Origin: Actinomycetota bacterium
GTDB taxonomy: Bacteria > Actinomycetota > UBA4738 > HRBIN12
DNA: 64,000 bases
Assembly: GCA_035490535.1 (NCBI GenBank)
Contig: DATHCP010000003.1
Location: 4,467-68,466 of the forward strand
Reading direction: 5' to 3'
The notes below the pieces were generated by a model, which ran no database searches, was not told where the DNA came from, and worked only from the letters and a program-made list of their open reading frames with translations. The position numbers and the translations under genes are program-made. Below, piece by piece: positions 6,737 through 64,000 of this stretch (position 1 is its first letter; every line of letters begins with the position of its first letter).

Positions 6737-6770
6737 GGCGGCGAGGATACGTGCGGCCCCACGGCTCCGG

Positions 6771-6800
6771 TCAGATCCGGTCAGATCCGGTCAGATCCGG
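6771..6800. repeat. Perfect 10-bp tandem triplication (TCAGATCCGG x3) spanning the hutI stop codon
   Basis: Directly visible: ggtcagatccggtcagatccggtcagatccgg. The proximal copy encodes the last codons (DRI*) of the minus-strand hutI, and the other two copies lie just downstream. Confidence 0.7.
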
Positions 6801-7954
6801 TCGCCGCGTCGGATCACGGTGCGGATCAGCGGCGCACCCGGCCGGTACGCGAGGTGGACGTGCGAGGGAGCCTCGAGCACCAGCAGGTCGGCGAACCCGC
6901 CCGGCGTGACGCGCCCCACGTCGGTCCGCCGGAGCGCCGCGGCTCCCCCCGCCGTCGCCGACCAGACCGCCTCGGCCGGCGTCATCCGCATCGCCGTGAC
7001 CGCGAGCGCCACGACGAGCGGCACGTTCGTGGTGAACGACGTGCCGGGGTTGCAGTCGGTCGCGAGCGCGACCCGGACGCCGGCGTCCAGGAGCCCGCGG
7101 GCGTCGGGCCAGGGGTGGCGTGTCGACAGGTCGGCGACGGGAAGGAGGGTCGCGACGACGTCGGCGCCCGCCAGGGCGTCGACGTCGTCGGCGCTCAGGT
7201 ACGTCAGGTGGTCGGCGCTCGCGGCGCCGACCTCCGCGGCCAGGCGGGCGCCGGGGCCGTGCTCGAGCTGGTTCGCGTGCAGGCGCAGGCCCAGGCCGCG
7301 ATCGGCCGCCGCCAGGAGGATCCGCCGCGCCGCGTCCTCGTCGAAGGCGCCGCGGTCGCAGAACACGTCGCACCAGCGGGCGAGGGGCGCGCACGCGTCG
7401 AGCATCTCGCCCACCACGAGGTCCACGTAGGCGGCCGGATCGTCGGCGAGCTCCGGCGCCACGACGTGGGCGCCCAGGAACGTCACCTCGTCGGTGATCG
7501 TGCCCGCGACGCCGAGCAGGCGAGCCTCGTCGTCGACCGTCAGCCCGTAGCCCGACTTCACCTCCACGGTGGTCGTGCCGGTCCGGAGCGCCTCCTCCGC
7601 CAGGCGTCGGGCGTTGGCGCGGAGGTCCTCGTCGCTCGCGGCGCGGGTCGCGGCGACCGTCGTTCGGATCCCGCCGGCCGCGTACGTCTCGCCGCGCATC
7701 CGCGCGTCGAACTCGCCCGCGCGATCGCCGGCGAAGACCAGGTGCGTGTGGGCGTCCACGAAGCCGGGCAGGACCGCCGCGCCGGCGGCGTCGATCCGCG
7801 GGCCCGGAACCCCTTCGGGGGCCGCGTCCGTGGGGCCGATCCACACGACCCGCTCACCCTCGATCGCGACCGCGGCGTTCCGGAGCAGCCCGAGCGGCCC
7901 CTCGCCCAGCTCCGGATCGTTCGTGACGAGCTCGCCGACGCCCGCGACGAGCAC
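6791..7954 (-). CDS. hutI: Imidazolonepropionase
   Basis: 387 aa, amidohydrolase fold. [14 protein letters not shown] is the metal-binding HxH, and further matches are [17 protein letters not shown] and ATDCNPGTS. It lies 4 bp downstream of hutU. Confidence 0.9.
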
Positions 7955-7957
7955 GCC

Positions 7958-9643
7958 TCAGGCCTCGGCCATCGGCACGCGCACGCCGCGCTCGCGCGCG
8001 ACCTCCTCCGCGTGCTCGTACCCCGCGTCGACGTGGCGGAGCACGCCCATCGCCGGGTCGTTCGTCAGCACGCGCTCGGCCTTCTCCCCCGCCTCCTCCG
8101 TGCCGTCGACCACGACGACCTGCCCGGCGTGGATCGAGCGGCCGATCCCCACGCCGCCGCCGTGGTGGATGCTGACCCACGACGCGCCGCTCGCCGTGTT
8201 CACCAAGGCGTTCAGCAGCGGCCAGTCGGCGATCGCATCCGAGCCGTCGGCCATCGCCTCGGTCTCGCGGTACGGGCTCGCGACGCTCCCGCTGTCCAGG
8301 TGATCCCGTCCGATCACGATCGGCGCGGTCAGCTCGCCGCTGGCCACGAGCTCGTTGAACCGGACCCCGGCGACCGCGCGTTCGCCGTAGCCGAGCCAGC
8401 AGATCCGGGCCGGCAGCCCCTGGAACGCCACGCGTTCTCCGGCCATCGCGAGCCAGCGCTGCAGGCGCTCGTCGTCGGGGAACAGCGCAGCCACCGCGCG
8501 ATCGGTCGTCGCGATGTCCTCGGGATCGCCCGAGAGCGCCGCCCAGCGGAACGGGCCCTTGCCCTCGCAGAACATCGGGCGCACGAACGCCGGCACGAAC
8601 CCCGGATACGCGTAGGCCCGGTCGTGCGCGAGCCCGCCCTGCTCGGCGCCCCCGCGCAGGTTGTTGCCGTAGTCGAACGCGATCGCGCCGGCTTCCTGGA
8701 ACGCCACGATCGCATCCACGTGCGCGGCCATCGAGTCGAACGACCGGCGCTCGTAGCCGGCCGCGTCGGCGGCCCGCAGCGCGTCGGCCTCGGCGACCGA
8801 CAGCCCCGACGGCACGTAGCCCCCGAGCGGATCGTGGGCGCTGGTCTGGTCCGTGACGACGTCGGGGCGCCAGCCGCGCCGCACGAGCTCCGGCAGCACG
8901 TCGGCGCAGTTGCCGAGCAGTCCGATCGACACCGCCTCGCGCGCGTCGCGGGCATCCTCGGCCCACCGCAGGGCCTCGTCGAGGTCGGCGGTCTCGCGGT
9001 CGAGGTACCGCGTCTTGATCCGGCGCTCGATCCGCGAGGGATCCACCTCGACGCAGATCGCGACGCCGTCGTTCATCGTCACGGCCAGCGGCTGCGCGCC
9101 GCCCATCCCGCCGAGCCCGCCCGTCAGCGTGATCGTGCCGGCGAGCGTCCCGCCGAAGTGCTGCGAGGCACACTCGGCGAACGTCTCGAAGGTCCCCTGC
9201 AGGATCCCCTGCGTGCCGATGTAGATCCACGAGCCTGCGGTCATCTGCCCGTACATCGTCAGGCCGAGCGCCTCGAGGCGTCGGAACTCGTCCCACGTCG
9301 CCCACTCCGGCACCAGGTTCGAATTCGCGATCAGCACGCGCGGCGCCCATGGGTGGGTGCGCAGCACCCCGACCGGCTTGCCGGACTGGACCAGGAGGGT
9401 CTCATCGTCGCGGAGGCGCCGCAGCTCGCGCACGATCGCGTCGAAGGCCGCCCACGAACGGGCCGCGCGGCCGGTTCCGCCGTAGACCACGAGGTCGTCG
9501 GGACGCTCGGCGACGTCGGGGTCCAGGTTGTTCATCAGCATCCGCATCGCGGCTTCCTGCGGCCAGCCGAGGCAGGTCAGCTCGGAGCCGCGGGGCGCGC
9601 GGACCTCGCGGGCTCCGGCGGTCGTCGACGTCACGCGTCTCAC
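7958..9643 (-). CDS. hutU: Urocanate hydratase
   Basis: 561 aa. [42 protein letters not shown] and the NAD-binding region are characteristic of urocanase. Confidence 0.9.
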
Positions 9644-17518: not shown

Positions 17519-19873
<2,355 letters not shown>

Positions 19874-32351: not shown

Positions 32352-35300
32352 ATGGTCTGCGGGAACTGCGGAACCGACAACGGCGAAGGCCGGAAGTTCT
32401 GCATGGAGTGCGGGGCGCCGTTGGCGCTCGGCTGCCCCGTCTGCGGCAGCCAGAATCCGCCCAGGAGCAAGTTCTGCGGCGAGTGTGGCTCGCCGATCGC
32501 CTCCGCGGAGGACGCGCCGGCGACCGCAGCCGCGGCGCGCCCGGCCGCCGAGCGCCGGCTCGTGACGGTTTTGTTCGCCGACCTCGTCGGCTCCACGCGC
32601 ATGGCCGAGGGCCGCGACCCGGAGGAGGTGCGCGACCTCCTCACCCGGTACTTCGACACCGCCCGCGACGTGATCGAACGCTACGGCGGCCTGGTCGAGA
32701 AGTTCATCGGCGACGCGGTGATGGCGGTCTGGGGCACCCCGACCGCGCACGAGGACGACGCGGAGCGCGCGGTGCGCGCGGCGCTCGAGCTGCTGGACGG
32801 CGTGGAGGCGCTCGGCGAGATGGTCGGCGTGGACCTGCGGGCCCGCGCCGGGGTCCTGACCGGCGAGGCCGCCACGATGATCGGCGCGGTCGACCAGGGG
32901 ATCGTGGCCGGCGACCTGGTCAACACCGCATCCCGCCTGCAGTCCGCGGCCGAGCCCGGCACCGTCCTGGTCGGCGACGCGACGTTCCAAGCGGCCGGGA
33001 AGGCGATCACGTTCGAACGGATCGGCGACCTCGCGCTGAAGGGGAAGGAAGCGCCGGTCCCCGCGTGGCGTGCGCTCCGGATCGTCGGCGAACGCGGCGG
33101 GGTCAACCGGACCGAAGCGATCGAGCCGCCGTTCGTCGGCCGCACGGAGGAGCTCCGGTTGATCAAGGAGCTGTTGCGTGTCACCGGCACGGAGCGGAAG
33201 GCGAGGCTCGTCTCGGTCGTCGGGATCGGCGGGATCGGCAAGTCACGCCTCGCGTGGGAGTTCGAGAAGTACGCCGACGGGCTCGTGGAGGAGCTGTACT
33301 GGCACCGCGGCCGCTGCCCCGCCTATGGCGACGGCGTCACGTTCTGGGCGCTCGGCGAGATGGTGCGCATGCGTGCCCGGATCGCCGAGACCGACGACCC
33401 GGCCGCCGCCTCACGCGCGCTGGCCACCTCGGTGGCCGACCTGATCGCCGATCCCGAGGAGCGCCGCTGGATCGAGCCGCGCCTCGCGCACCTCCTCGGC
33501 CTCGAGCCCGCGCCGCCGGGCGATCGCGCCGAGCTGTTCGCCGCGTGGCGCACGTTCTTCGAGCGCATCGCCGAGCGCGGCACCACGGTGCTGGTCTTCG
33601 AGGATCTCCAGTGGGCCGACGCCGGGATGCTCGACTTCATCGAGTCGATGATCGAGTGGTCCCGGAACCTGCCGATCCTGATCGTGACGCTCGCCCGGCC
33701 CGAGCTGGCCGAACGCCGGCCCACGTGGGGCGCCGGCTCGCGCAGCCTCACCGCCTTGCACCTGGAGCCCTTGCCGGACGCAGCGATGACCCAGCTGGTC
33801 ACCGGCTTCGTCCGCGACCTTCCCGCCGAGAGCGTCGAACGGATCGTCACGCGCGCCGAGGGCGTCCCGATGTACGCGGTCGAGACCGTTCGGATGCTGG
33901 CCGACCGCGGCGTCCTGCACGCGGCCGAGGGAGCGTACGAGCCGGTGGGTGAGGTGGGTGAGCTCGACATCCCGCCCACCCTGCACGCGCTGATCGCCGC
34001 GCGCCTCGACGGGCTGGCGCCGGAGGATCGCGGCCTGCTCCAGGACGCGAGCGTGCTCGGGAAGAGCTTCACGCTCGACGGGCTCGCCGCGATCGCGGGG
34101 CTCGCGGCTCCGGAGCTGGAGCCGAGGCTCCGGGAGCTGACGCGGAAGGAGTTCCTGGAGTTGGACGCCGACCCACGCTCGCCCGAGCGTGGGATGTACA
34201 CGTTCACCCAGTCGATGATCCGCGAGGTCGCCTACGCGACGCTCGCGCGCGCCGACCGGCGCGCCCGCCACCTCGCCGCGGCCCATCACCTCGAGTCCCT
34301 CGGGGACGAGGAGCTGGCGGCGGTGGTCGCGACGCACTACGTCGAGGCCTACCGGGAATCGCCGGCGGGGCCGGAGGCCGACGCTCTGGCCGCCCGCGCC
34401 CGCGACTGGCTCTCGCAGGCCGCCGAACGTGCGACGTCCCTGGGCTCGCCCGAGCAGGCCCTCGCGTACGCGGAGATCGCGCTCGACGTCACTCCGGCGG
34501 GCACCGAGCGGGCAGCGATCCTCGAGGTCGCCGGCCGCGCGGCGGTGCACGCGGCCGAGTTCCCTCGCGCCGTTGCGTTCCTCGAGGAGGCGATCGCCAT
34601 CCTCGGCGGGATCGGGGACCTCGAGTCGGTCGCGCGTGTGACGGCCCGCCTGTGGCGCGCGCTCGCACCCCAGAACCGCCGGATCGAAGGCGCCGAGCGG
34701 ATGGAGGCCGCGCTGGCCGACCTCGGGGATGAGGGCCACGAGGAGGTCCGCGCCAAGGTCTACGCGTCGCTTGCCAGCGCGTACGTGATCACCGACGCCG
34801 CCGAGGTCGCGATCGGATGGGCGGAGCGCGCCCTGGAACTCGCCGAGCGGAACCACCTCACCGAGACGTTGGTCGAGGCGCTCGGCGCGAAGTCGCTCGG
34901 GCTGTTCAACCTGGGCCGGCATCGCGAGGCGACGATCCTGGCGCGCGGGACGCTGCAACTCGCAGAGGAGATCGGGAGCATCCGGATCGCGGGCGAGGCG
35001 TTCATGGGGATCGCGGTCTACGGCTCCGAGGACGACCCGATCGGCTCGCTCCACGCCTTCGAGGAAGCGGCCGACATGGCGCGGCGTGCCGGTGACCGTC
35101 CGCTCGAACTGGTGACGCTTCCGAACCTCGCCGAGTCCGCGATCGAGCTCGGGCACTGGCCCGAGGCGGAGGACGCGATCGCGCGCCTCGACGGCAGGGA
35201 GCTCACCCCGATGACCAGGGACAGCGTCGTGTGTTGCGAGGCGTCGCTGCTCGCGCATCGCGGCGAACCGGATCGGGCGCTCACGCGCCTGGAGAGCGTG

Positions 35301-35843
35301 CGGGTCGAGGTCGAGGCGACCGAGATGGTGCCGCTCCGCGCGTGGTTCTTGCGCGTGCGCTCGGCCGTGCTGCTCCTGCACGGCGATCTGGACGCGGCGT
35401 ACGACGAGGCGATGGGCGCCGTGGCGCTCGATCCTGCCGGGATGAATACGCCGCTCGCAACGCGAGAGGCGTCCCGTGCCGCCGTGTGGGCGCGCGACGC
35501 CGAGCGCGTGCGCCGGGCGATCGCCGCGGTGGGCGTGCTGGGCGGCCGTTGGATCGACGCGGTGCGCCTGACGGCGACCGCCGGCCTCGCCGCGATCGAG
35601 GGGCGGCGGATCGACGCGGTGGCCGGCTACGGACGCGCGATCGACGCGTGGCGCGACCTGAACTGTTCGTTCGACCTGGCCTGCTGCGCGATCGACATGG
35701 CGGCGGTGCTCCCCGGAGAGCCGCTGACGGAGGAGACGCTCGCGGACGCGACCGCCTACCTTCGCGATATCGGCGCCGTCGCGCTCTTGGAGCGGCTGGC
35801 GGCGTTCACCCGCGAGGGCGAGGCCGCATCGACGACGGCCTGA
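32352..35843 (+). CDS. Double-zinc-ribbon / class III adenylate-guanylate cyclase / AAA-ATPase / TPR-like multidomain (STAND-type) protein
   Basis: 1163 aa. The N-terminal region is CGNCG...CMECG...CPVCG...CGECG (double Zn ribbon). The cyclase domain shows VLFADLVGST, FIGDAVMAVWG and LVNTASRLQ, so the metal Asp residues and the Asn/Arg are present. The P-loop is VVGIGGIGKSRL, and a long helical-repeat C-terminus follows. There is no HTH. Confidence 0.85.
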   Translation: MVCGNCGTDNGEGRKFCMECGAPLALGCPVCGSQNPPRSKFCGECGSPIASAEDAPATAAAARPAAERRLVTVLFADLVGSTRMAEGRDPEEVRDLLTRYFDTARDVIERYGGLVEKFIGDAVMAVWGTPTAHEDDAERAVRAALELLDGVEALGEMVGVDLRARAGVLTGEAATMIGAVDQGIVAGDLVNTASRLQSAAEPGTVLVGDATFQAAGKAITFERIGDLALKGKEAPVPAWRALRIVGERGGVNRTEAIEPPFVGRTEELRLIKELLRVTGTERKARLVSVVGIGGIGKSRLAWEFEKYADGLVEELYWHRGRCPAYGDGVTFWALGEMVRMRARIAETDDPAAASRALATSVADLIADPEERRWIEPRLAHLLGLEPAPPGDRAELFAAWRTFFERIAERGTTVLVFEDLQWADAGMLDFIESMIEWSRNLPILIVTLARPELAERRPTWGAGSRSLTALHLEPLPDAAMTQLVTGFVRDLPAESVERIVTRAEGVPMYAVETVRMLADRGVLHAAEGAYEPVGEVGELDIPPTLHALIAARLDGLAPEDRGLLQDASVLGKSFTLDGLAAIAGLAAPELEPRLRELTRKEFLELDADPRSPERGMYTFTQSMIREVAYATLARADRRARHLAAAHHLESLGDEELAAVVATHYVEAYRESPAGPEADALAARARDWLSQAAERATSLGSPEQALAYAEIALDVTPAGTERAAILEVAGRAAVHAAEFPRAVAFLEEAIAILGGIGDLESVARVTARLWRALAPQNRRIEGAERMEAALADLGDEGHEEVRAKVYASLASAYVITDAAEVAIGWAERALELAERNHLTETLVEALGAKSLGLFNLGRHREATILARGTLQLAEEIGSIRIAGEAFMGIAVYGSEDDPIGSLHAFEEAADMARRAGDRPLELVTLPNLAESAIELGHWPEAEDAIARLDGRELTPMTRDSVVCCEASLLAHRGEPDRALTRLESVRVEVEATEMVPLRAWFLRVRSAVLLLHGDLDAAYDEAMGAVALDPAGMNTPLATREASRAAVWARDAERVRRAIAAVGVLGGRWIDAVRLTATAGLAAIEGRRIDAVAGYGRAIDAWRDLNCSFDLACCAIDMAAVLPGEPLTEETLADATAYLRDIGAVALLERLAAFTREGEAASTTA

Positions 35844-42549: not shown

Positions 42550-43077
42550 ATGCCCCCCGAGCGGCAGGAAGCCCTCGCCACGATCCGCGACGGCGACGCG
42601 CGGCTCGCCGCGCTGTTCGCGCGCCTCGACGAGGAGGCGTTCGTGCGGCGCGGGACGATCGGCGATGGCGACTGGTCGGCGAAGGACCTGATGGGCCACA
42701 TCGCGTTGTGGGAGGAGATCGCGCTCGCCTGCATCGACCCGTGGCTCCGCGGCGAGGACCCGGAGCTCGAGGAGCGATTCACCCAGGGCAACGCGGATGC
42801 GATCAACGCCTGGAACGAGCGGCGTAAGCTCGAGTGGCCCCTCGCCCGGGTTCGGGACGAAGCCGCCAGGACCCACACCGAACTCGTCGAGCGGATCGAG
42901 GCGATGACCGACGAGGAGTGGTCGGCGCCGAAACGGTTCGAAGACGAACGGTCGGCGCCCGACCTGGCGACCCAGCTGGGCGGGATCCTCAGCGCCGACC
43001 GGCCGTTCAACCACGCCGACGCGCACCTGCCCGACCTCGAGGCCTACGTCACCTCGCTCGGCGATCCGCCGCGGTAG
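42550..43077 (+). CDS. ClbS/DfsB-like (DinB-superfamily four-helix bundle) protein
   Basis: 175 aa. It has an N-terminal helical region, WSAKDLMGHIALWEE and a C-terminal His, as in the DUF1706/ClbS family. The assignment is moderate. Confidence 0.5.
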   Translation: MPPERQEALATIRDGDARLAALFARLDEEAFVRRGTIGDGDWSAKDLMGHIALWEEIALACIDPWLRGEDPELEERFTQGNADAINAWNERRKLEWPLARVRDEAARTHTELVERIEAMTDEEWSAPKRFEDERSAPDLATQLGGILSADRPFNHADAHLPDLEAYVTSLGDPPR

Positions 43078-44503
43078 GCCGCGGCGGCAGCAGGAGCGGA
43101 GGCCGCGGCGGCTGCGTGAAGTCGAAGTCGGCGATCAGGTCACCCAGCCCGGGCGTTTCCTCCGCCACGAACGGCCGGCTGTCCGGGCGGCCGTCGGTCG
43201 TCGGGTCGAGGCGCTGCCCGTTCAGGAAGTCGTCCTCGATGAACCTCAGGTACGAGTCGGTCGACAGCTCCTGGTGGTCGATGTACCCGGTCCTCGCGTA
43301 CGGGCTGATCACGAGTCCCGGCACACGCAGGCCGAACCCCTGCGGGTTCGCGTTCGGCGGCGGCACGTGGTCGTAGAAGCCACCCCAGTCGTCCCACGAG
43401 AGGAAGATCGCGGTGCTGTCCCACTCCGGGCCGCGCATCGCGGCGTCGACGATCTTCGTGACCCACGCCTGCCCGTTCGCGATCGACGCGGGCGGGTGCT
43501 CGCTGTCGCGGCCGTTGGGGACGATCCACGTCACGTTCGGCAGCGTCCCCTGCCGCGCGTCGCGGAAGTACGCGCGGGCGACCTGGACGTTGCGGAGCTG
43601 GTGATCCTGGTGCACCGTTCGGAACTTCGGCAGCGGGTTCCAGATGTCCGGGGTGTCCACCGTTTGCCCGCGATAGGGGCAGAACATCGCCTGGTCGCCG
43701 CAATCGGGCTGGCTGCCGCGCTGGACGAAGTACCGCCAGCTGATGTGATGCGTGAACAGCAGGTAGCTGAGGTCGGTCCACGCGAACGGGGGCTGTCCGT
43801 CCTGGTTCGGGATCTGTCCGTGGTGATCGTCCCGCTGGTCGAGCTGCGTGTGACAGCTCATCGGATCGCTCGGGTTCTCGCAGCTCGCGCTCCAGCCGGA
43901 CACCATGTCCAGGTGCGCGGGCTCGCTCCAGGAGCGGACCCCTTCGAACATGTGGTCCTGCAGCACGAAGTGCTTCGCGTAGGCCCAGTAGTTCGGGATC
44001 TCCGCGGCGGTGTGGTAGCCGATCGAATCCGGCACGCGGGCGTGCGAGTGCGTGCCCGTGCACTGCGGGGCGGTCCGGCGTGTGGTGCAGTAGGCGAGCC
44101 GGCCCCGGAGCGCCATCCGCACGAACCCGTCCATCCGACCGTGATCGACGTCCAGGCGAGCGGCCGCGTCCGAGTGCGGCCCGCCGTCGTCGATCAGGCT
44201 CCGGTCGTGGAACGGGTGGACGCAGTGGCCGACGAGCGCATCCGGGATGCAGGCCGTCGGAACCCCATCCTTCATCGGGATCCCGTCGGCGCCCGGGAAC
44301 GTCGCGAAGTAGTTGTCGAACGACCGGTTCTCCTGCATCACCACGATCACGTGGCGGATCAGATGGATCCCGGAGGCGTCCCCGAGCTGCGCCTCGACCG
44401 ATCCGACGAGGCCTGCGGGAGGGATCGAGGTCCTCGACGAGCAGGAGACGGTGAGTGCGCCGATCAGCACCGCGGCCGAGGCCGCGAGCCCCGCGCGACG
44501 CAT
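43049..44503 (-). CDS. Phosphoesterase family protein (phospholipase C / acid phosphatase AcpA-like), secreted or lipoprotein
   Basis: Start at the ATG at 44503 (MRRAGLAASAAVLIGALTVSCSS), a signal or lipoprotein peptide. VIVVMQENRSFDNYFATFPG is the phosphoesterase (PLC/AcpA) N-terminal signature. The protein is about 485 aa. Confidence 0.8.
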   Translation of the reverse strand: MRRAGLAASAAVLIGALTVSCSSRTSIPPAGLVGSVEAQLGDASGIHLIRHVIVVMQENRSFDNYFATFPGADGIPMKDGVPTACIPDALVGHCVHPFHDRSLIDDGGPHSDAAARLDVDHGRMDGFVRMALRGRLAYCTTRRTAPQCTGTHSHARVPDSIGYHTAAEIPNYWAYAKHFVLQDHMFEGVRSWSEPAHLDMVSGWSASCENPSDPMSCHTQLDQRDDHHGQIPNQDGQPPFAWTDLSYLLFTHHISWRYFVQRGSQPDCGDQAMFCPYRGQTVDTPDIWNPLPKFRTVHQDHQLRNVQVARAYFRDARQGTLPNVTWIVPNGRDSEHPPASIANGQAWVTKIVDAAMRGPEWDSTAIFLSWDDWGGFYDHVPPPNANPQGFGLRVPGLVISPYARTGYIDHQELSTDSYLRFIEDDFLNGQRLDPTTDGRPDSRPFVAEETPGLGDLIADFDFTQPPRPPLLLPPRPTAADRRAR

Positions 44504-44549
44504 CCTGGTCGACGCCACGCGGGGGATGCGTCGCGCGGGGTGGAGCGGT

Positions 44550-45101
44550 TCAGCGGTGGATCGGCTTGTCCGTGCGGACCGGGCCGTTGAACGGAACCCC
44601 GAACCCCACACCCTCCAGCACGTAGTGCACGGTGGCGCCCCCGTCGGCGGTCACGGACACGTTGAAGCCCGAGGCAACGTAGATCGACCCGTTCAGCGCC
44701 GCCTCCAGGTGACCGGTCGCCGAGCCGCCGTCGACCGTGCCCTGCCAGATGATCGAGCCGGCTCCGAGCGTGATCCCCTTGCGGACCGTAAGCGTGGCGG
44801 CCACACCGTTCGTCACCGGCACGTCGAGGCTGATCCCCGACAGCTCGCCCTTCCCGCTCTTCGTGCCGCTCCCGGTGGCGCTCAGGATCACGGTGTTGCC
44901 CGCATCCTGCGTATACACGAGCGAGCCGCTCGCGTCGGTCCAGAGGCTGCCCGCGGTCACGCGCGCCTTCTGCGCGGTCTTCGGATCCTTCACCGTGACG
45001 AGGTTCGACGCCGCTTGCGCGAGCGGTGGCCCGACCAGGTACCCGACGATCGCCGCCGCCAGCACCAGCCCCGACACGCGGACCCACTTCCCTGCCTGCA
45101 T
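44550..45101 (-). CDS. Secreted Gly/Ser/Thr-rich hypothetical protein
   Basis: 183 aa with a GAGAGAGGGG RBS. It has a signal peptide (LVLAAAIVGYLVGPPLAQAAS), a beta-rich low-complexity composition and no Cys. Confidence 0.5.
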   Translation of the reverse strand: MQAGKWVRVSGLVLAAAIVGYLVGPPLAQAASNLVTVKDPKTAQKARVTAGSLWTDASGSLVYTQDAGNTVILSATGSGTKSGKGELSGISLDVPVTNGVAATLTVRKGITLGAGSIIWQGTVDGGSATGHLEAALNGSIYVASGFNVSVTADGGATVHYVLEGVGFGVPFNGPVRTDKPIHR

Positions 45102-45190
45102 CGCTCCGCCCCTCTCTCGGTGGACGTCCGGATGCGAACGAGTGTCGGTCTCGTTCCGCCCCGACGCAACGACGCGGGGGCGTGCGGGTC

Positions 45191-46156
45191 CTACTCGAGG
45201 CCGTAGAGGCGGCGGGCCGCCGGCGTCATCCGTGCGAGCTCGGACGCCGGGATCGCCGGGGGTCGGTGCTCGGGCTCCGCGTCTCCACGCCGGAAGAACT
45301 TGCGCCGCCCGACCATCGCGGGGGGCTCCGGCTTCGGGGGTCGGGGGACCGACGGGTGCCGAAGTCCCTCGGTGACCTCGGCCGCGGGATGCGCCTCCGG
45401 AACCGTTGGACCTCGCCGCAGCCCGTCACCAACCCCATCACGTCGTTGACGTTCCTGAACTGCATCCCTCAGAACGTCGGGCTTTCGAACTTCTCGAACT
45501 TCTCGAACTTCTCGAACTTCGTGTTGCTGAACTTCCTGAACTTCCTGTGTTCCAACTTCGCGTACCTGGGGGGTTGGAGGTTGCTTCGCAACTTCCTCCG
45601 ACACCAACCTCCTCTCGACCTTCGCGAGCGCGCCCAGCAAGCGCGTCCGCAGGTCGGACGTCCGTCGGTCAGCTTCCTTGACCATCTCGTCCGTCGAGGC
45701 GTCGGCGCGGGAACGTCGGCCCACATCCGACAGATCGATGTCCAGCCGGAAGGGGTACCGGGCGGCCGGCGCCGGAGCGTCCCGCCACGCGGGACCGGGC
45801 GCATCCGCCAGCGGATCCTCCCGGTAGCGGCCGACGAATTCCAGCTTGCCGGGCTCCGCACCGATCACGCGGTCCTCGACCGAGGCGTCCACCAAGCCGG
45901 TCAGCAGCATCGGGCGGCGGATCCTGGGACCGGTACGGCCCTGGGAGCGCTCGGCCGCCTCGGCGCGGAGCTGCCGCTGCTCCTCATCGTCCCGCCGCCG
46001 GAACTCGGCCGCGAAACGCTCTGCGCCCCAACGAGAAGCCCGCATCCGGGCGTAGGTGAGGAGGGCAGCTTCGATGCCGTCGTCGTCCTCGGGCACGTCG
46101 GTGTCGTCGCCCCACGTGCGGAGGTCTTCCAGCCAGAACGCCCCCTCTGCCGCCAT
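45191..46156 (-). CDS. Hypothetical protein containing an in-frame EVR/QEV tandem-repeat segment
   Basis: Start tentatively at the ATG at 46156 (MAAEGAFWLEDL), so that it does not overlap the upstream cyclase gene. It has an acidic N-terminus, and its C-terminal part contains QEVQEVQQHEVREVREVREVR, encoded by the 9-bp repeats. No domain recognised. Confidence 0.4.
   Translation of the reverse strand: MAAEGAFWLEDLRTWGDDTDVPEDDDGIEAALLTYARMRASRWGAERFAAEFRRRDDEEQRQLRAEAAERSQGRTGPRIRRPMLLTGLVDASVEDRVIGAEPGKLEFVGRYREDPLADAPGPAWRDAPAPAARYPFRLDIDLSDVGRRSRADASTDEMVKEADRRTSDLRTRLLGALAKVERRLVSEEVAKQPPTPQVREVGTQEVQEVQQHEVREVREVREVRKPDVLRDAVQERQRRDGVGDGLRRGPTVPEAHPAAEVTEGLRHPSVPRPPKPEPPAMVGRRKFFRRGDAEPEHRPPAIPASELARMTPAARRLYGLE
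45486..45545. repeat. 9-bp tandem repeat (CGAACTTCT x3 plus one variant copy, then TGAACTTCC x2) in a local low-GC (about 45-58%) patch
   Basis: Directly visible: cgaacttctcgaacttctcgaacttctcgaacttcg...tgaacttcctgaacttcc. The repeat is in frame on the minus strand (EVR/QEV units). Local GC is far below the roughly 70% window average. Confidence 0.8.
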
Positions 46157-46190
46157 CCCGATGGGTATCGGCACGCGAGCGGGGGGACCT

Positions 46191-49100
46191 TCAGCCGGAG
46201 AGCCGATCCACCTCCGCGACCAGCGGATCCGCCCCGAGACCCGCGAAGACCTCCCGGGCGCGCGCCCGCCGGTGCGCCGCCTCGGCCCTGCCGAGGCGGC
46301 CCAGGCACCGGGCGGCGCCCAGCAGGGCACCGCCGGTGGCCGGCACGTGCCCGTAGTCGGCCCATCCCTCGGCCGCCTCGTCGAACAGGGCCGCGGCGCC
46401 CTCGTCGTCGCCGTCCGCCTCGGCGAGGGCGGCCCGCGCCGTTGCGACCGAGAGCAGGTGGCGGCGGGTGAACGTCCTCGCCCGCTCGAGGAGTCGCCGC
46501 GCGGCGTCCACGTCGCCGGCGGCGATACACAACCGCACGAGGTCGGCGATCGAGCCTTCGAGGTACCAATCGAGACGGATCTCCGTCATCGCCTCGAGCT
46601 CGGCGACGATCGCGAGCGCGTCCTGCGGCCTGCCGTCGCGCAGCGCGACGAGACCGGCCGTCACGAACGCCGGCACGACCACCTGGGCGTCGCGGAGTTC
46701 GCGACCGACCACGACCAGGTCCTCGGCGGCCGCACGCGCCTCGTCGAGGCGGCCCCGCCACAACAGGACCTGCGTGCGCCAGGGTGTGGTGAGCCCCGCG
46801 GCGTACCGCCCACCGACCTCGTCGGCGTGGCGGAGCACGTCGTCCGCGATCCGCAGCAGCTCATCCCACTCCCCCGCGTCGAACAGCGGGCCGAGGCTGG
46901 TGGTCCAGCAGCCGACGAGCATCTCGCTGAGCGCCCGGTGCTCCGCGAGTGCGGCGCCGGCCGCCGTCGCCTCGAGCGCCGGCGCGGGCCCCTCGGCGGC
47001 CCACAGCACCTCGGCGAGGATCAGCAGCACGCGCGCGTTCTCGCGGGACAGCCCGAGCCGCTCGGTCAGCTCTCGCGCTTCTCGGAGGTCGTCCAGCCCG
47101 CCGAGGTCGCCCAGGTAGCACCGGGACATGCCCCGGTAGGACAGCGCGCGCGGCCGGCTCGCCTCGGCGCCGAGCTTCCCGACGAGCTCCAGCGCGCGCT
47201 CGGAGACCTCGATCGCCTCCTCGAAGTGCCCGGTCAGCAGGTGGTCCGAGGCGATCGACGCGTAACAGTCGGCGAGCTCCGGGCCGGGCGGCTCGGCCTC
47301 GAGGTCGGCCACCGCCTGCGCGAGCAGCTCCCGCGAGCCGGCGGTGTCGCCTTGTTCCCAGCGGACGGTCGCCAGCCAGTTCTCCGCGGCGCCCGCGACC
47401 AGCCGGTCGCCGTTCGCGCGTGCGGCGGCGATCACCTCCTCGTAGGCGGCGCGCGCCTCCGGATAGCGGCCTCGATAGAACGACGCCTCCGCCTGCGCCG
47501 CGAGGATCGCCGCGCGCTCAGGCGCCTCCGCCGGCAGCGTCGCCAACGCGCGGCCGAACGAGGCGTACGCGCTGTCGACGTCCAGGCTCATCTGGCGCTC
47601 GCCGGCCATCACCCAGTACCGCCGTGTGGCGTCCTCGAGGTCGCCGACATCGGTGCGGCCGGCCGAGCGCAACAGCTCCAGGGCGCGGTCGTGATGGAAC
47701 GCGAGGACCTCGGCTTTGTCCGAGACGCGCTCGCCGGCGATCCCCTCGATCCATGCCGCCGCCGCGACGTGCTTCGCCGCCCTGGGCTCGCGCGGGATCT
47801 GGCCGTACGCGACGTCGCGGATCAGGGCGTGCGAGAACGCGTACTCGTGCTGATCCCGGATCGAGGACTCGCGCGAGCGCCGGACCAGCTCGCTCCGCAC
47901 GAGCTCGTGCAGGCGGGCCTCGACATCGGCCGGATCGGCGCCGCCGATCGCGGCCAGCGCGCCGGACCAGAAGACCTTCCCGACCACCGAGGCGTCCTGC
48001 AGCAGGAACTTCTGCTCCACCGGCAGCGTGTCCAGGCGCGCCGCGATCAGGGCCTGCAGGCTCTCCGGCGGCGTGATCTCCGGATCGCCCCCGCCGGCCG
48101 GTCCCACGAACATCCGGGCGAGCTCCTCGGCGAACAACGGGTTGCCGCCGGCGCGTTCGATCAAGGCGCCGCCGACCGCCGAGACCGTCTCTGCCGGCAG
48201 CAGCGAGGCAACGAGGCTCCGCGTGTCGGTCTCGCTGAGCGGCGCCAGCGACACCGTGCTCGCGTTGCGCGTGCCGCCGCCCCAGTTCGGCACGCGATCG
48301 AACAACTCCGGCCGCGCCGAGCACAGGATCAGCATCGGCCCGACGCTCCATTCGACGAGGTACTCCACGAACGCGAGCAGCGCGTCGTCGGCCCAGTGCA
48401 GGTCCTCGAGCACGACGACGAGCGGCCAGTGCGCCGCGACCGCCTCCAGGAACCGGCGCCAGGCGCTGAACGCCTCGGTGCGATCGGCCCCCTCGGACTG
48501 CGGCTCGTCCAGTCCGATCAGCGGCGCGAGGCGTCCCCGGACCCAGCCGCGCTCGCCCGGATCGTCCACGACCGCCTCGACCGTGGCGGTCAGCTTCGCG
48601 CGGGCCTCGGCGGCGTCGTCCGATTCGAGGATGCCGGCCTGCGCCTTCACGACCTGCCCCAGCGCCCAGAACGTCACGCCCTCGCCGTAGGACAGGCTCC
48701 GCCCCTGCCGCCAGGCGATCACCTCGGGAAGGTCGTCGAGGTAGGTGAAGAACTCGCGGATCACCCGGCTCTTGCCCACGCCGGGCTCGCCCATCAGGGT
48801 CACCAGCTGCACCGAGGGCTCGCGAACCGCGCGGGCGAACGTCCGCTTCAGCAGCTCGAGCTCGTCCTCGCGGTCGACCATCGGGGTCGAGCTCCGATCG
48901 AGCATCTCCGCGCCGAAGCGGCTCCGCGCCGATCGCGCGACCCAGATGTGCAGCGGCTTCGCCTTGCCCTTGACCTCGACGGGTTCGACCTCGTCGAAGT
49001 CGAAGGCCTCGGCCGTCAAGCCGTGCGCGCGCTCGCCCACGATCACGCCGCCGACGGGCGCGACCGTCTGCAGCCTGGAGGCGGTGCTCACCACGTCCCC

Positions 49101-49484
49101 GACCGCGATCCCCTGCTTCGTCCGATCGGCGCCGACGGCCACCACGGCCTCGCCGGTCTCCACCCCGATCCGGACCTGGAGGTTCAGCTCGGGCTGCGAC
49201 TCGTTCAGGACCTCGATCGCCGGGGGGATCCGCAGCGCGCTCAGCAGCGCGCGCTGCGCGTCGTCCTCGTGGGCGACCGGCGCGCCGTAGACCGCCATCA
49301 CCGCGTCGCCGATGTACTTCTCCACGACGCCGCCGAACCGCTCGATCTCGCGCGAGACGGTGGCGTGGTAGGTGGCCAGCGCGTCGCGGACGTCCTCGGG
49401 GTCGGCCAGGTCGAACGTCGCGGTGAAGCCCACGAGGTCGCAGAACAGGATCGTGACGACCTTGCGTTCGACGCTGCTGCCCAC
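46191..49484 (-). CDS. Class III nucleotidyl cyclase-like / AAA-ATPase / TPR-like multidomain (STAND-type) protein, paralog 2 (no Zn ribbon)
   Basis: 1097 aa. The cyclase-like domain shows ILFCDLVGFT, YIGDAVMAVYG and VVSTASRLQ, so Ser replaces the usually conserved Asn. The P-loop is MGEPGVGKSRVI, and helical repeats follow. It has the same architecture as 32352..35843. Confidence 0.85.
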   Translation of the reverse strand: MGSSVERKVVTILFCDLVGFTATFDLADPEDVRDALATYHATVSREIERFGGVVEKYIGDAVMAVYGAPVAHEDDAQRALLSALRIPPAIEVLNESQPELNLQVRIGVETGEAVVAVGADRTKQGIAVGDVVSTASRLQTVAPVGGVIVGERAHGLTAEAFDFDEVEPVEVKGKAKPLHIWVARSARSRFGAEMLDRSSTPMVDREDELELLKRTFARAVREPSVQLVTLMGEPGVGKSRVIREFFTYLDDLPEVIAWRQGRSLSYGEGVTFWALGQVVKAQAGILESDDAAEARAKLTATVEAVVDDPGERGWVRGRLAPLIGLDEPQSEGADRTEAFSAWRRFLEAVAAHWPLVVVLEDLHWADDALLAFVEYLVEWSVGPMLILCSARPELFDRVPNWGGGTRNASTVSLAPLSETDTRSLVASLLPAETVSAVGGALIERAGGNPLFAEELARMFVGPAGGGDPEITPPESLQALIAARLDTLPVEQKFLLQDASVVGKVFWSGALAAIGGADPADVEARLHELVRSELVRRSRESSIRDQHEYAFSHALIRDVAYGQIPREPRAAKHVAAAAWIEGIAGERVSDKAEVLAFHHDRALELLRSAGRTDVGDLEDATRRYWVMAGERQMSLDVDSAYASFGRALATLPAEAPERAAILAAQAEASFYRGRYPEARAAYEEVIAAARANGDRLVAGAAENWLATVRWEQGDTAGSRELLAQAVADLEAEPPGPELADCYASIASDHLLTGHFEEAIEVSERALELVGKLGAEASRPRALSYRGMSRCYLGDLGGLDDLREARELTERLGLSRENARVLLILAEVLWAAEGPAPALEATAAGAALAEHRALSEMLVGCWTTSLGPLFDAGEWDELLRIADDVLRHADEVGGRYAAGLTTPWRTQVLLWRGRLDEARAAAEDLVVVGRELRDAQVVVPAFVTAGLVALRDGRPQDALAIVAELEAMTEIRLDWYLEGSIADLVRLCIAAGDVDAARRLLERARTFTRRHLLSVATARAALAEADGDDEGAAALFDEAAEGWADYGHVPATGGALLGAARCLGRLGRAEAAHRRARAREVFAGLGADPLVAEVDRLSG

Positions 49485-49535: not shown

Positions 49536-50483
49536 CTAGGCCGGCTCGGCCACCCAGCGCATCGGGTCGCCGGCCCCGAGGTCCTCCACCCCGGCGTCGA
49601 TCAGCGCGCCGGCCACGAGCGTGCGCCGGTGCGCGGCGAACGTCAGGACGTGCGCGATCATGCCGCCGTAGGTGAAGACCTCCGGGTCCTCGCAGATCGC
49701 GTCCACGAAGGTCTCGTCCAGGCGCCCCTCGTCCCCGACCGTCCGGACCCGCTCGAGGAAGGCGGATCCTTCCCGGTCGAGGCGTGCCCGCATCGATGCG
49801 ATCGACTCATGCTGCTCGACGTCCCAGTCGTACGGTCGGCCGTCGATCGCCGCGTTCCACATCGCCATCTGCCCGACCAGCCGCGACAGGAGCGACCGCA
49901 ACGTCGGATCGTCGTCGACCCCTTCGACCGAGATCCGGATCGGCTCGTCGAGCTGCGCGTCGCTCAGCGTGCCGGCACGCGTGATCATCTCGCCGACGAG
50001 CCAGACGTGGTGCTCCACCATGCGGTTCAGCAGGTCCATCGGACCCTCCTTCGTTCGTGCGGGCAGCCGCAGGCTGCCCGGCGGATGGAAGTGCACGCCG
50101 CTCGGCGCGTCCAACTGGAACCGGCGGGGCTCGCGTCGCCACGCGGCGGGCGCGGCGCCGTAGGAACGGGCGAAGGCCCGCGTGAACGCCTCGTTCGAGC
50201 CGTAGCCGGCCTCGATCGCGACGTCCAGGACGGAGCGATCCGTCGTCACCAGCCGGTAGGCGGCCCGCTCCAGGAGCACCCGCCGGCGGAACGCGCCCGG
50301 CGGCTCACCGGCCGTCGCCGCCACCACGCGATCGAGGTGGTACCGCGAGAGGTGGACGCGGGCGGCAAGGTCGGCTCCGGAGGCCTCGTGATCGTCCAGG
50401 GCCGAGGACAGGACCTCGACGAAGGAGCGGAAGGTGTCGGTCGCGGTGCTCACGTCCCCATCCTCGTCGAGTCGCCCGTTCAC
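49536..50483 (-). CDS. AraC-family transcriptional regulator fused to a DinB/YfiT-like C-terminal domain
   Basis: 315 aa. The N-terminal HTH_AraC region is LSRYHLDRVV...LDVAIEAGYGSNEAFTRAFARSYGAAP. The C-terminal region of about 170 aa has a four-helix-bundle-like His-containing segment (VEHHVWLVGEM...). It is divergent from the putative RiPP operon. Confidence 0.75.
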   Translation of the reverse strand: MNGRLDEDGDVSTATDTFRSFVEVLSSALDDHEASGADLAARVHLSRYHLDRVVAATAGEPPGAFRRRVLLERAAYRLVTTDRSVLDVAIEAGYGSNEAFTRAFARSYGAAPAAWRREPRRFQLDAPSGVHFHPPGSLRLPARTKEGPMDLLNRMVEHHVWLVGEMITRAGTLSDAQLDEPIRISVEGVDDDPTLRSLLSRLVGQMAMWNAAIDGRPYDWDVEQHESIASMRARLDREGSAFLERVRTVGDEGRLDETFVDAICEDPEVFTYGGMIAHVLTFAAHRRTLVAGALIDAGVEDLGAGDPMRWVAEPA

Positions 50484-61047: not shown

Positions 61048-61440
61048 ATGCGAGCTCGAGCGGTGCTGTCCATCGTCGCCGTCGCGGCGGTCTGCGGTGC
61101 GATGCTGCTGTCCGGGATCGCGGCCGGCGTCACGAAGGCCGCGACCACCGTCACGATCAAGGCCCAGAACGGCGACTTCTCCGGCACGATCAGCTCGCCG
61201 CGGCCGAAGCGCTGCGCGAACAACCGGACGGTGAAGGTCTACCACCAGAAGGGGAAGGACCAGAACCTCAAGGTGGACACGGTGATCGGCAGCGACATCT
61301 CGTCGTTGAACGGCGACCACTACGAGTGGTCGACCGGGAACTCGGGCGCGCCGAACGGCAAGTACTACGCGCGCGCGGTCGCGACGGCGAACTGCAAGGC
61401 CGACTCGAGCCCCACCGTCAAGAACGTCAGGAACCCGTAG
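61048..61440 (+). CDS. Small secreted hypothetical protein
   Basis: Start at the ATG at 61048 with a CAGGGAGGGG RBS. It has a signal peptide (MRARAVLSIVAVAAVCGAMLLSGIAAG) and a beta-rich mature region with two Cys. Confidence 0.5.
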   Translation: MRARAVLSIVAVAAVCGAMLLSGIAAGVTKAATTVTIKAQNGDFSGTISSPRPKRCANNRTVKVYHQKGKDQNLKVDTVIGSDISSLNGDHYEWSTGNSGAPNGKYYARAVATANCKADSSPTVKNVRNP

Positions 61441-64000
61441 CGGGGGTCGGCTCGCCCAGGCGCGTCAGCCGCTCCCGGACGTGCCCCGCCTGGAGCGTGT
61501 TCCCTTTCGCCTCGAAGAGCGCTAACGCCTCGCGGGCCGCCTCGACCGCCTCCTCGGTCCGGCCGGCGAGCTCGAGGACCTCGGCGAGCGCGACCCGGGC
61601 ATCCGCTCGGTCGGAGGGGAAGTCCGTCTCGTCCACGATCGCGATCCCGCGTCGCGCGGTTGCTTCGGCTTCGTCGAAGGCGCCTCGGCGTGCGGCGACC
61701 ATCCCCTGAACGCCGAGCCCGATCACCAGCTCCGCGATGCCGTAGCTCTCACGCTTGATCGCCTCCGACGCAGCCCGGTCGGCCTCGTCGTAACGACCGA
61801 GCGCGTACAGCGCCTGGGCACGGAAGGCGGACACGATCCCGACGGCGTCCGAGCCCATCTCCTGGAGTCGTCCGACGGCCTCCCCGAGGATCCGATCCGC
61901 CTCGGCCGCGTTCCCGGACAGGAGTTCGAGCAATCCGATCTGCTGCGATCCGTGGGCGAGCGGGAGGTCCCGGCCGAGTTCACGCAGCCGGCGATCGCTC
62001 TCCTCGATCCGCGCCCGGGCGCCGGCGAGGTCGCCGCGCATCATCAGGACGGTTCCCATCGACGCGGAGATGTCGCGCTCCGCGACCGGGATCCCTCGCG
62101 CCTCCTTCGCGAGCGCCCCGAGGGCGCGGATCGCCTCGTCGGTGTGCATCGGCCCCCACGGCCCGACGGACGAGAGCCAACCGAGCTCCTCGCCGTACAT
62201 GAAGCGGTCCCCGGCGTCGCGGAACAGGTCCGCCGCCCGACGCCACCGCGGCTCCGCCTCGGCCGCACGGCTCGCGCTCCAGGCGATGTCCCCCAGGACC
62301 GTCCAGGCGAACGCCTCACCGAGGATGTCGCCCGCATCCGTGAGGATCGGGAGGCACTCCTCGACGTCGCGCTGGACCTGATCCCGGTCGGGCCGTCCCC
62401 ACGACCGGATCAGCGCCCGGAGGACGCGGGCACGGGCGACGATCGCCTCGGCTCCCTCGGCGCGGGCGATATCGACGGCTCTGGTCGCCGCGGCTTCTCC
62501 TCGCTCCAGCTCGCCCCGCTCGGCGTACGCCATCGCGAGATCCGTGAGCACCGGAACCAGCGCCGGATCCGCGGGCCCCATCAACGAGATCGCCCGGGTC
62601 ATCAACGTCACGGCGGCCGGCATGTCGCCCCGGTCGTAGGCTGCCTTGCCGGCGGCGCGCAGCGACGCCGCAGCGCGTTCGGCGAGCGCGGCCACGCGAC
62701 CCGGATCCGTGCCGAGCTCCTCGAGGTAGCGACAGGCTCGTTCGAGGTGGTACCCGATCAGCTCCTGCTGCTGCGGCGCACGCTCCGCCAGCCAGCCCGC
62801 GAACCGCTCGTGCATCTCGGCCCGTGACGTCTTGGTCAGGCCGTCGTAGGCGGCATCGCGGATCAGCAGGTGACGGAACGCCAGGGCCTCGGCACCGATC
62901 AGGTCCGATCGCTCGGGGCGCACGAACTGCTTGCGCACGAGCGAGTTCACGCGGCTCGCGATCTCCGGATCATCGGAGAGGGCGCGGAGCGCGTCCGGAT
63001 AGAAGACCTGCCCGATCACGCTCGCGGCCAGGAGCGTGTCGCGGTCTCCGGTGTCGAGTCGGTCGATCCGCGCGGCCAGCAGCGCCGAGGTCGTCGGCGG
63101 GATCGCGAGCTCGCCCAGGTCTCCGACGGCGCTCCAGACGTCGTCGATCACCGCGAGCCGTCCCTCGTCGATCAGCATCGCGAGCATCTCCTCGGCGAAC
63201 AACGGGTGTCCTTCGGCCGCGCTCGCCACGCGGGTCCGGACGTCGTCGGAGACGGACTGGACGGCGAGGAGGTTCGCCACGAGCTCGGCGCATTCCTCGT
63301 CGGACAGCGGTTCGAGGGAGATCGAGGTCGCGTTCAGCTTGCCGCCGCCCCAGGCCGGGCGGACCTCGAGCAGCTCGGGCCGGGCCATGCAGGCGAGCAG
63401 GACCGGCGCGTCGACCGACCAGTCAGCCACGTGCTCGATCAACGCGAGCATCGTCGGCTCGGCCCACTGGACGTCGTCGATCAGGAACACCAGCGGCCGC
63501 TCGCTGGCGATCGACTCCAGCAGGCGACGGATCGCCCACAGCGTCTCCTCGGGGCTGACCTCCTCGCCCTCGATGCCGAGGACCTGCGCGACCTGTGCCG
63601 CGATCCGGTCGCGGTTCGCGTCGTCGTGCACGAGCGCGGCGATCCGATCGTGGACCTCGGCCGGCGTCTCGCCGCCGGCCAGCCCGGCGGCCTGCCGGAC
63701 CGCCTCGACGACCGGCAGGAAGGTGATCCCGTCACCGTATGGAAGGCACCGGCCGCGGAGCACGGTCGCCCGGTCGCCCAGCGCGACCACGAACGCCTCG
63801 AGCAGGCGCGACTTCCCGACGCCACCGACGCCGAGAACCGTGAAGAGCTGGCACGCATGGTCGGAGACCGTGCGATCGAACGCGTCGAGCAACAGCGACA
63901 GCTCGCGTTCGCGTCCGACCATCGGGGCGTCGAGCCGCCGCGCGAAGCCCGCGGCGGCCGGATCCACCTTCGAGACCCGATAGGCGACGAGCGGCTCGTC
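61427..64000 (-). CDS. Cyclase-associated AAA-ATPase / TPR-like (STAND-type) protein, paralog 3 (partial; N-terminus beyond the right edge)
   Basis: The reading frame continues upstream of the apparent GTG at 63967 (DEPLVAYRVSKVDP...). MVGRERELSLL plus the P-loop VLGVGGVGKSRLL and helical repeats match the post-cyclase region of the two other paralogs. A cyclase-like domain presumably lies outside the window. Confidence 0.8.
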   Translation of the reverse strand, partial: DEPLVAYRVSKVDPAAAGFARRLDAPMVGRERELSLLLDAFDRTVSDHACQLFTVLGVGGVGKSRLLEAFVVALGDRATVLRGRCLPYGDGITFLPVVEAVRQAAGLAGGETPAEVHDRIAALVHDDANRDRIAAQVAQVLGIEGEEVSPEETLWAIRRLLESIASERPLVFLIDDVQWAEPTMLALIEHVADWSVDAPVLLACMARPELLEVRPAWGGGKLNATSISLEPLSDEECAELVANLLAVQSVSDDVRTRVASAAEGHPLFAEEMLAMLIDEGRLAVIDDVWSAVGDLGELAIPPTTSALLAARIDRLDTGDRDTLLAASVIGQVFYPDALRALSDDPEIASRVNSLVRKQFVRPERSDLIGAEALAFRHLLIRDAAYDGLTKTSRAEMHERFAGWLAERAPQQQELIGYHLERACRYLEELGTDPGRVAALAERAAASLRAAGKAAYDRGDMPAAVTLMTRAISLMGPADPALVPVLTDLAMAYAERGELERGEAAATRAVDIARAEGAEAIVARARVLRALIRSWGRPDRDQVQRDVEECLPILTDAGDILGEAFAWTVLGDIAWSASRAAEAEPRWRRAADLFRDAGDRFMYGEELGWLSSVGPWGPMHTDEAIRALGALAKEARGIPVAERDISASMGTVLMMRGDLAGARARIEESDRRLRELGRDLPLAHGSQQIGLLELLSGNAAEADRILGEAVGRLQEMGSDAVGIVSAFRAQALYALGRYDEADRAASEAIKRESYGIAELVIGLGVQGMVAARRGAFDEAEATARRGIAIVDETDFPSDRADARVALAEVLELAGRTEEAVEAAREALALFEAKGNTLQAGHVRERLTRLGEPTPATGS

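Follow-up and report, generated by a model that had tools for sequence, protein, structure and literature searches.

The short tandem repeat described here is probably a young array of in-frame duplications inside an unstructured spacer, which joins two conserved modules of a small cytoplasmic protein. The protein has 321 amino acids and is encoded in a stretch of Actinomycetota DNA 64,000 nucleotides long, the whole of which we call the window; all positions refer to it unless another locus is named. The repeat is an ordinary kind of feature. The protein family that carries it is small and was previously undescribed.

How would such an array arise in a GC-rich gene? We propose that a GAAGTTNNN seed was amplified in the lineage of the window, most likely by replication slippage or unequal recombination. 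The surrounding spacer would tolerate almost any length or sequence and so would evolve by the gain, loss and decay of short units. Part of the AT-richness of the array would follow from its residues, Glu, Val, Gln and Arg/Lys, which have AT-rich first and second codon positions. The more important cause would be the codon choice of the seed, whose rare AT-ending codons (GAA, GTT and CGA) would have been copied along and not yet replaced by GC-ending ones. Each unit gained or lost would alter the length of the spacer by three residues; the gene would not be switched on or off. The array itself would be close to neutral, and the part played by the spacer would be architectural, as a tether of the two modules.

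Results

Judged by its conservation, the reading frame that holds the repeat is a real gene (Table 1). A collection of 5.8 billion proteins contains 19 homologues of its product, and a profile search of 1.84 billion representatives gave about 51 clusters at 50% identity. We located 32 related loci, 24 in species-representative genomes and eight in metagenomes. All family loci belong to uncultured Actinomycetota, mostly soil MAGs. Outside the spacer, GC content at third codon positions (GC3) is 0.85-0.95, as in real genes of the source genome. The start codon is fixed by a conserved motif upstream together with the conserved N-terminus. A sequence-only reading of this DNA had named conservation of the frame beforehand as a test, which the frame passes; it had also placed the frame between a gene for a protein with a signal peptide and a cyclase-AAA-TPR (STAND) gene, and this is where it lies.

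Table 1. Positions in the window of the gene, its parts and its neighbours
Feature	Position	Strand	Basis
Gene for 321-aa orphan protein; ATG at 46156, stop at 45191-45193	45191..46156	-	ORF, translation, homologues
Conserved N-terminal module, codons 1-140: long helix containing ALLxYxxxxAxRWGAERFAAEFRRRDEEE, followed by LVDASVEDRVIGAEPG and PFRLDI	45737..46156	-	Alignments, AlphaFold
Hypervariable spacer, codons 141-265	45362..45736	-	Alignments, pLDDT
Conserved C-terminal module, codons 266-321: RHPxVPRPP, basic patch, IxxxELARMTPAARRLYGLE	45194..45361	-	Alignments, AlphaFold
Rare-codon, AT-rich patch, codons 196-240	45437..45571	-	GC3, codon counts
Four perfect 9-bp copies, coding strand GAAGTTCGA (Glu-Val-Arg), codons 213-224	45485..45520	-	Tandem Repeats Finder, position check
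Degenerate 9-bp array, about seven units GAAGTTNNN on coding strand, including (QEV)x2 at 45530-45547	45487..45547	-	Tandem Repeats Finder
Candidate sigma-28/WhiG-like -10 element, GCCGATAC, 8 nt before ATG	46165..46172	-	35-locus comparison, published consensus
Possible -35 element, TGAA, 17-nt spacer; overlaps TGA stop of STAND cyclase gene	46190..46193	-	Inference
Phosphoesterase-family gene	43049-44611	-	
Gene for 183-aa protein, signal-peptide-like N-terminus	44550-45101	-	
Gene for 1097-aa adenylate/guanylate cyclase-AAA-TPR (STAND) protein	46191-49484	-	
AraC/DinB regulator gene	49536-50483	-	

All of the neighbouring genes lie on the minus strand, and the wider window, syntenic with relatives, is an unremarkable stretch of chromosome. 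An all-against-all comparison of the flanking ORFs of 24 loci found no constant neighbour of the kind expected of an operon partner. It recovered general synteny only (an RF-1 domain protein, a GDSL lipase and a phosphoesterase), and apparent 'paralogues' among these ORFs proved to be antisense artefacts. The STAND neighbour could be taken as a hint that the protein is a component of anti-phage defence. We reject this candidate: the protein matches no PADLOC model, the match of the neighbour is limited to the generic cyclase domain of PycC, and the neighbour is missing from two related loci (L001, at 7900-8000, and L004, at 5900-6000). What these two loci keep of the cyclase gene is its last ~100 nt (...VDAVRG-stop), a remnant that carries the promoter-like element discussed below.

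Several features of the loci deserve a record of their own. Within 32 kb, the window has three large NTPase-TPR genes of the STAND type, at 32352-35843 (plus strand), 46191-49484 (minus) and 61427-63967 (minus); two have N-terminal class III cyclase domains, one of these with a double zinc ribbon as well. Several public gene calls for relatives (L002, L003 7887-8000; P0006-P0011) begin at an internal Met (MKASRWG...) and thereby lose 38 conserved residues. They begin late because the real start is a GTG without a ribosome-binding site. In one MAG (DATIWE01) the family gene is split over two short-read contigs, L005 and L006, which overlap within the conserved N-terminal module and not at the repeat, and several long-read MAG copies (L004, L010, L024, L026 and L027) have frameshifts. 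TTA (bldA-type) codons are absent from the window gene and from four relatives.

What does the protein look like? The sequence-only reading saw no recognisable domain. This is right as far as curated libraries go: neither the window protein nor its relatives have a match in Pfam, NCBIfam, PADLOC, the PDB sequence profiles or Foldseek-PDB, and at E <= 0.1 Pfam offers no family for the window protein or seven relatives. It overlooks modules that are clearly conserved. Alignments give the same order of elements across the family: ALLAYxxxxAxRWGAERFAAEFxRRDEEE, LVDASVEDxVIG, a variable spacer, RHPHVPRPPAPEP, a basic patch and ISxxExARMSPxARRLYGL. We ran the structure prediction that the earlier reading had suggested, on the window protein and on a relative of 182 amino acids, and AlphaFold returned isolated helices with no globular fold. 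The long N-terminal helix is confident in both models (pLDDT 83-96; 83-93 over residues 25-73 of the window protein), as are two short C-terminal helices (pLDDT 88-90). The rest of both models has low confidence, with pTM values of 0.23 and 0.28. On these models, the protein is best described as recognition helices strung along a disordered chain and not as a globular fold. It has no signal peptide and no hydrophobic or membrane segment, and we take it to be cytoplasmic for this reason.

The C-terminal module also occurs behind unrelated, membrane-anchored and weakly PH-like N-termini in three proteins (P0062, P0068 and P0069), which share RHPHVPRPPAPEPEP, the basic patch and SPGARRL. This distribution suggests that it may be an independent, portable docking module. 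One of the three, P0068, has a repeat-rich spacer of its own, built of AAGIDxxxL units.

Between the modules, the spacer is hypervariable: across the family it ranges from 15 to 173 amino acids. Sister species have N- and C-terminal modules that are 93-98% identical without a single gap (94-98% for the N-terminal module), and spacers that are 50-86% identical with 16-36 gap columns. The window protein shares 62-79% identity with its relatives in the modules and about 30% in the spacer, where 26-49 alignment columns are gaps. The units of repetition differ too. At the corresponding site, spacers of sister species contain a tandem unit of 48 bp (16 amino acids, KLVEQLQEPEV...) in 3.4-5.7 copies; the window spacer has one decayed copy of this unit (RLVSEEVAKQPP), followed by the GAAGTTNNN array. 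Since the modules are conserved while the spacers vary and their units differ, we conclude that the birth, loss and decay of short repeats drive the evolution of the spacer. It has the properties of an intrinsically disordered variable linker, namely low order and no fold (pLDDT below 50, the pTM values, Foldseek) and a length and sequence unconstrained relative to the flanking modules. Each 48-bp unit of the sister species (L001 8507-8671, L002 8372-8641 and L003 8372-8658) contains a 7-bp inverted repeat, GAAGTTG-N6-CAACTTC, which encodes Lys-Leu-Val-Glu-Gln-Leu with rare Leu and Gln codons; the window array has no inverted partner of this kind.

Within the spacer, Tandem Repeats Finder identifies two arrays of period 9: a perfect one at 45485-45520 with the unit TCGAACTTC (4.0 copies, 100% matches, score 72) and a wider, degenerate one at 45487-45547 (7.1 copies, 80% matches). 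The minus-strand translation of the region contains TQEVQEVQQHEVREVREVREVRK, and codon arithmetic puts the four Glu-Val-Arg units exactly over the perfect array. The repeats had been described in another phase, and they are indeed present as such: three perfect copies of CGAACTTCT begin at 45486, 45495 and 45504, two copies of TGAACTTCC at 45528 and 45537, and (EVR)x4 and (QEV)x2 are read in frame on the minus strand. By our own calculation, the chance that 27 successive bases match the base nine positions back is roughly 0.3^27, so the array is not a product of chance. A perfect four-copy array within a degenerate seven-copy array supports an origin by slipped-strand synthesis or duplication, of which it would be the signature.

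One alternative is that the locus is a contingency or VNTR locus, at which copy number changes often between strains and selection makes use of the variation. Perfect tandem units are a substrate for slippage, and the spacers of related lineages do differ by repeat-unit indels; to this extent the earlier slipped-strand reading holds. The contingency role is not supported. The 9-bp unit is present in only four copies; it lies in frame within the coding region and changes neither the reading frame nor the spacing of a promoter. Being in frame, a change in copy number adds or removes Glu-Val-Arg and no more, and on/off switching is not possible. A role in phase or antigenic variation is further made unlikely by the lack of a signal peptide or membrane segment. 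A genome-collection scan, a metagenome scan and an exact-sequence look-up found no same-species sequence of the window. For sister species, we could compare members of 90%-identity clusters, whose lengths are 311/311, 317/317/279 and 295/333 amino acids. The lengths of 279 and 295 are explained by a difference in start codon (a later one for 279), and members of the same cluster differ by point substitutions only. One orthologue is identical in two metagenome samples. The variation in length that we observe is variation between species and not between strains. We consider a contingency locus quite unlikely; the repeat shows no sign of being a genetic switch.

The array lies within a patch whose base composition stands out. 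The 200 bp at 45423-45622 have the lowest GC content in the window, 54% against a mean of 71.5%. The sequence-only reading had put local GC at about 45%, a value that fits the 63-bp core at 45485-45547 (46%); over the wider interval to which it was attached, 45420-45620, GC is 54.7%. The patch has a GC3 of 0.29, compared with 0.84 in the remainder of the gene (Fisher p = 2e-13). Collapsing the identical copies raises it to 0.36 (p = 2e-8), and four neighbouring genes have a GC3 of 0.93. All eight Glu codons of the patch are GAA (10% in the neighbouring genes) and nine of its 10 Val codons are GTT (2.8%); CGA, CGT and CAA are over-used as well. The low GC content thus stems partly from amino-acid composition and mostly from the choice of third positions.

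Is the patch foreign DNA, or an artefact of assembly? Its local GC content, far under the genome mean, is what would raise the suspicion. The reading frame is intact, however, with conserved modules on both sides, and no flanking inverted or direct repeats of the mobile-element type are present. Moreover, the patch occupies a position homologous to that of the relatives' spacers and shares part of their sequence, QEVQEVQQ in the window corresponding to QEPEVQELQ. An insertion or artefact is hardly credible on these grounds.

Age offers a better account of the codons. Older parts of the window spacer are rich in Arg, Ala and Gly and have a GC3 of 0.65-0.85. Because these parts are already GC-rich and the anomaly is concentrated in codons 196-240, we read the patch as the youngest sequence of the spacer. 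Youth may not be the whole story. Even with the identical copies collapsed, the patch keeps its low GC3 of 0.36. All five members of the clade have a lower GC3 in the spacer (0.54-0.66) than in the flanks (0.83-0.88; 0.83-0.85 for the four sister genes), and GAA, CAA, TTG and CTT are enriched in the spacers of the four sister genes examined. In a genome with a GC3 of about 0.93, a low spacer GC3 throughout a clade whose spacers are 50-86% identical is not obviously expected from youth alone, and its persistence leaves room for selection on codons or on DNA composition.

The patch itself might then be selected, as a translational pause between the modules, as the DNA site of an AT-preferring protein or as a means of avoiding structure in the mRNA. 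In favour of selection are the low GC3 and the rare codons (GTT besides the four above) in all five spacers despite their fast turnover, and the composition of the 200-bp patch, which is lower in GC than every intergenic region of the window. Yet distant members of the family have Pro/Ala-rich, GC-normal spacers or, at 15 amino acids, almost none, which means that the property is not needed for the function of the family, and most of the window spacer is GC-rich already. A scan for promoters and terminators was negative for sigma-70-like sites within the patch and close to it, and Rfam gave zero matches over 44000-47000. Nor do the folding calculations help: a hairpin or cruciform at the repeat is rejected, as the repeat DNA folds like its shuffles (z = 0.05), and the RNA folds modestly better than shuffles (z = -2.5) owing to a hairpin outside the repeat. 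On balance we regard a selected patch as unlikely.

We also considered a DNA motif independent of frame. GAAGTT occurs eight times in frame 0 of the window gene and one to five times in frame 2 (Lys-Leu) of relatives, where its reverse complement is present too. We rejected such a motif: the Glu-Val units of the window align in frame with GAA-GTG (Pro-Glu-Val) of the relatives. The recurrence of GAAGTT across frames is coincidence or common descent, and no frameshift or DNA-level motif is needed.

A third possibility is that the repeat encodes structure, a charged single alpha-helix or a coiled-coil 'ruler' that sets the distance between the modules. AlphaFold does draw helices over residues 207-221 and 227-240, and residues 152-191 just before them form a confident helix. 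With 47% charged residues and a net charge of about zero, the patch is a well-mixed polyampholyte, and each Arg of (EVR)n has a Glu four residues later. The helix over the repeat is of low confidence, however, with pLDDT below 50 over residues 197-225 (and again over 241-267). The homologous spacers have regular prolines, a different composition and lengths down to 15 amino acids, and the period-3 pattern differs from the classic E4K4 or ER-K pattern. The features of a single alpha-helix (ER/K) domain are thus lacking, and a helical ruler seems very unlikely to us.

Upstream of the family genes, a short element has resisted change. In each of the 35 loci that extend to the 5' end, GCCGATA is present without change; the next base may be C, A, T or G (the element is mostly GCCGATAC). 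Its distance from the start codon, GTG or ATG, is 7 nt in 33 of the 35 loci; the exceptions are L009, with 6 nt, and the window, with 8 nt. The sequence around it is not conserved between clades, and an in-frame stop between motif and start codon in L020 indicates that it is not coding. In the 383 kb examined, GCCGATA occurs elsewhere only 18 times on both strands together. Other occurrences in the window, at 17548 and 35768, are both inside coding sequence, and the window is not enriched in the motif. Two related MAGs (L007, at 2800, and L008, at 7054) have a second GCCGATAC, which lies about 400 nt downstream of the family gene, is followed by a GTG 6 nt later and precedes only a short ORF. 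Just upstream of the element in the window, an imperfect 20-bp tandem repeat (2.2 copies, 80% matches) at 46201-46245 occupies the last codons of the STAND cyclase gene.

The consensus GCCGATAA is that of the -10 element of sigma-28 family factors, actinobacterial WhiG among them (PMC8325347, PMC12784957, PMC12871210), and lies at positions -15 to -8 in a solved complex (PMC12784957). All 35 loci agree with it, including the central CGA. The partner -35 element is T(A/C)AA at 16 nt, for which an exact match is required (PMC12871210). Here the family falls short, matching at three of four positions: the candidates are TGAA at 17 nt in the clades of the window and of L014, and G/A/C-CAA at 16 nt in other clades. 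We infer that the family genes may be transcribed from sigma-28/WhiG-type promoters. The start site predicted from the element would fall on the start codon, which would leave their mRNAs leaderless. Conservation of GCCGATA is also indirect evidence that the window gene may be expressed.

Discussion

Disordered linkers of variable length that connect a conserved core to a conserved terminal peptide are familiar from the C-terminal linker of FtsZ and the Glu-Pro/Lys-Pro repeat spacer of TonB. The window protein resembles them in combining conserved modules with a low-complexity spacer whose length and sequence vary between species through the gain and loss of short repeats. It is unrelated to them in sequence and fold, and the unusual codon bias of its spacer sets it apart. 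With the coding VNTRs of bacterial genes the array shares in-frame tandem units able to arise and change by slippage. Contingency loci are different: usually they are extended tracts of units of 1-7 nt, which shift the reading frame or promoter spacing, or they lie in genes for surface proteins, whereas here four copies of 9 bp lie in the gene of a cytoplasmic protein, and we saw no polymorphism among near-identical relatives.

A more adventurous comparison is with FlgM. This anti-sigma-28 factor is intrinsically disordered, and sigma-28 promoters drive its own transcription. The window protein is likewise small and largely disordered, with short conserved helical motifs and, upstream of its gene, a sigma-28-type -10 sequence. 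It has no match to the Pfam FlgM family, and membership is rejected; the resemblance is one of architecture and promoter only. We can imagine a lineage-restricted family with leaderless mRNAs made from a sigma-28/WhiG-type promoter. Its product would be disordered and bind partners as FlgM does, perhaps as a hitherto unrecognised regulator or client of the sigma factor, and selection would maintain its spacer of rare, AT-ending codons. As a whole this combination is improbable. The anti-WhiG factor RsiG carries the c-di-GMP-binding motif E(X)3S(X)2R(X)3Q(X)3D (PMC8325347). We rejected this identity as well, because a regular-expression search of 95 family proteins found neither the motif nor a relaxed form of it.

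The promoter-like element can be compared with the sigma-28/WhiG promoters of Actinomycetota (PMC8325347, PMC12871210). It shares GCCGATA(A/C) with its central CGA, the 16-17 nt to xxAA, and a position consistent with transcription beginning 8 nt beyond the motif. It departs from them in matching the -35 element T(A/C)AA at only three of four positions, and the likeness is one of sequence. If the element is indeed a strictly conserved, leaderless promoter of the sigma-28/WhiG-like type, it would add a target to a regulon that is being mapped across the phylum.

The repeat by itself has little importance. It is one more short tandem duplication shaping a disordered spacer, useful mainly as a possible marker for strain typing. 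Of modest interest are its surroundings, an orphan family of Actinomycetota with a conserved promoter-like element and a rare-codon spacer found throughout a clade. As an island of rare, AT-ending codons in a genome with a GC3 of about 0.93, this spacer could serve as a modest natural experiment that sets young sequence against selected pauses.

Perfect arrays of a similar score are scarce, with only one other in the 64 kb. It is TCCGGTCAGA, repeated 3.7 times at 6766-6802, and its period of 10 bp is not a multiple of three. This array lies between the stop of one minus-strand gene (at about 6791) and the ATG of the next at 6736, where a change in copy number would shift the upstream spacing by one helical turn.
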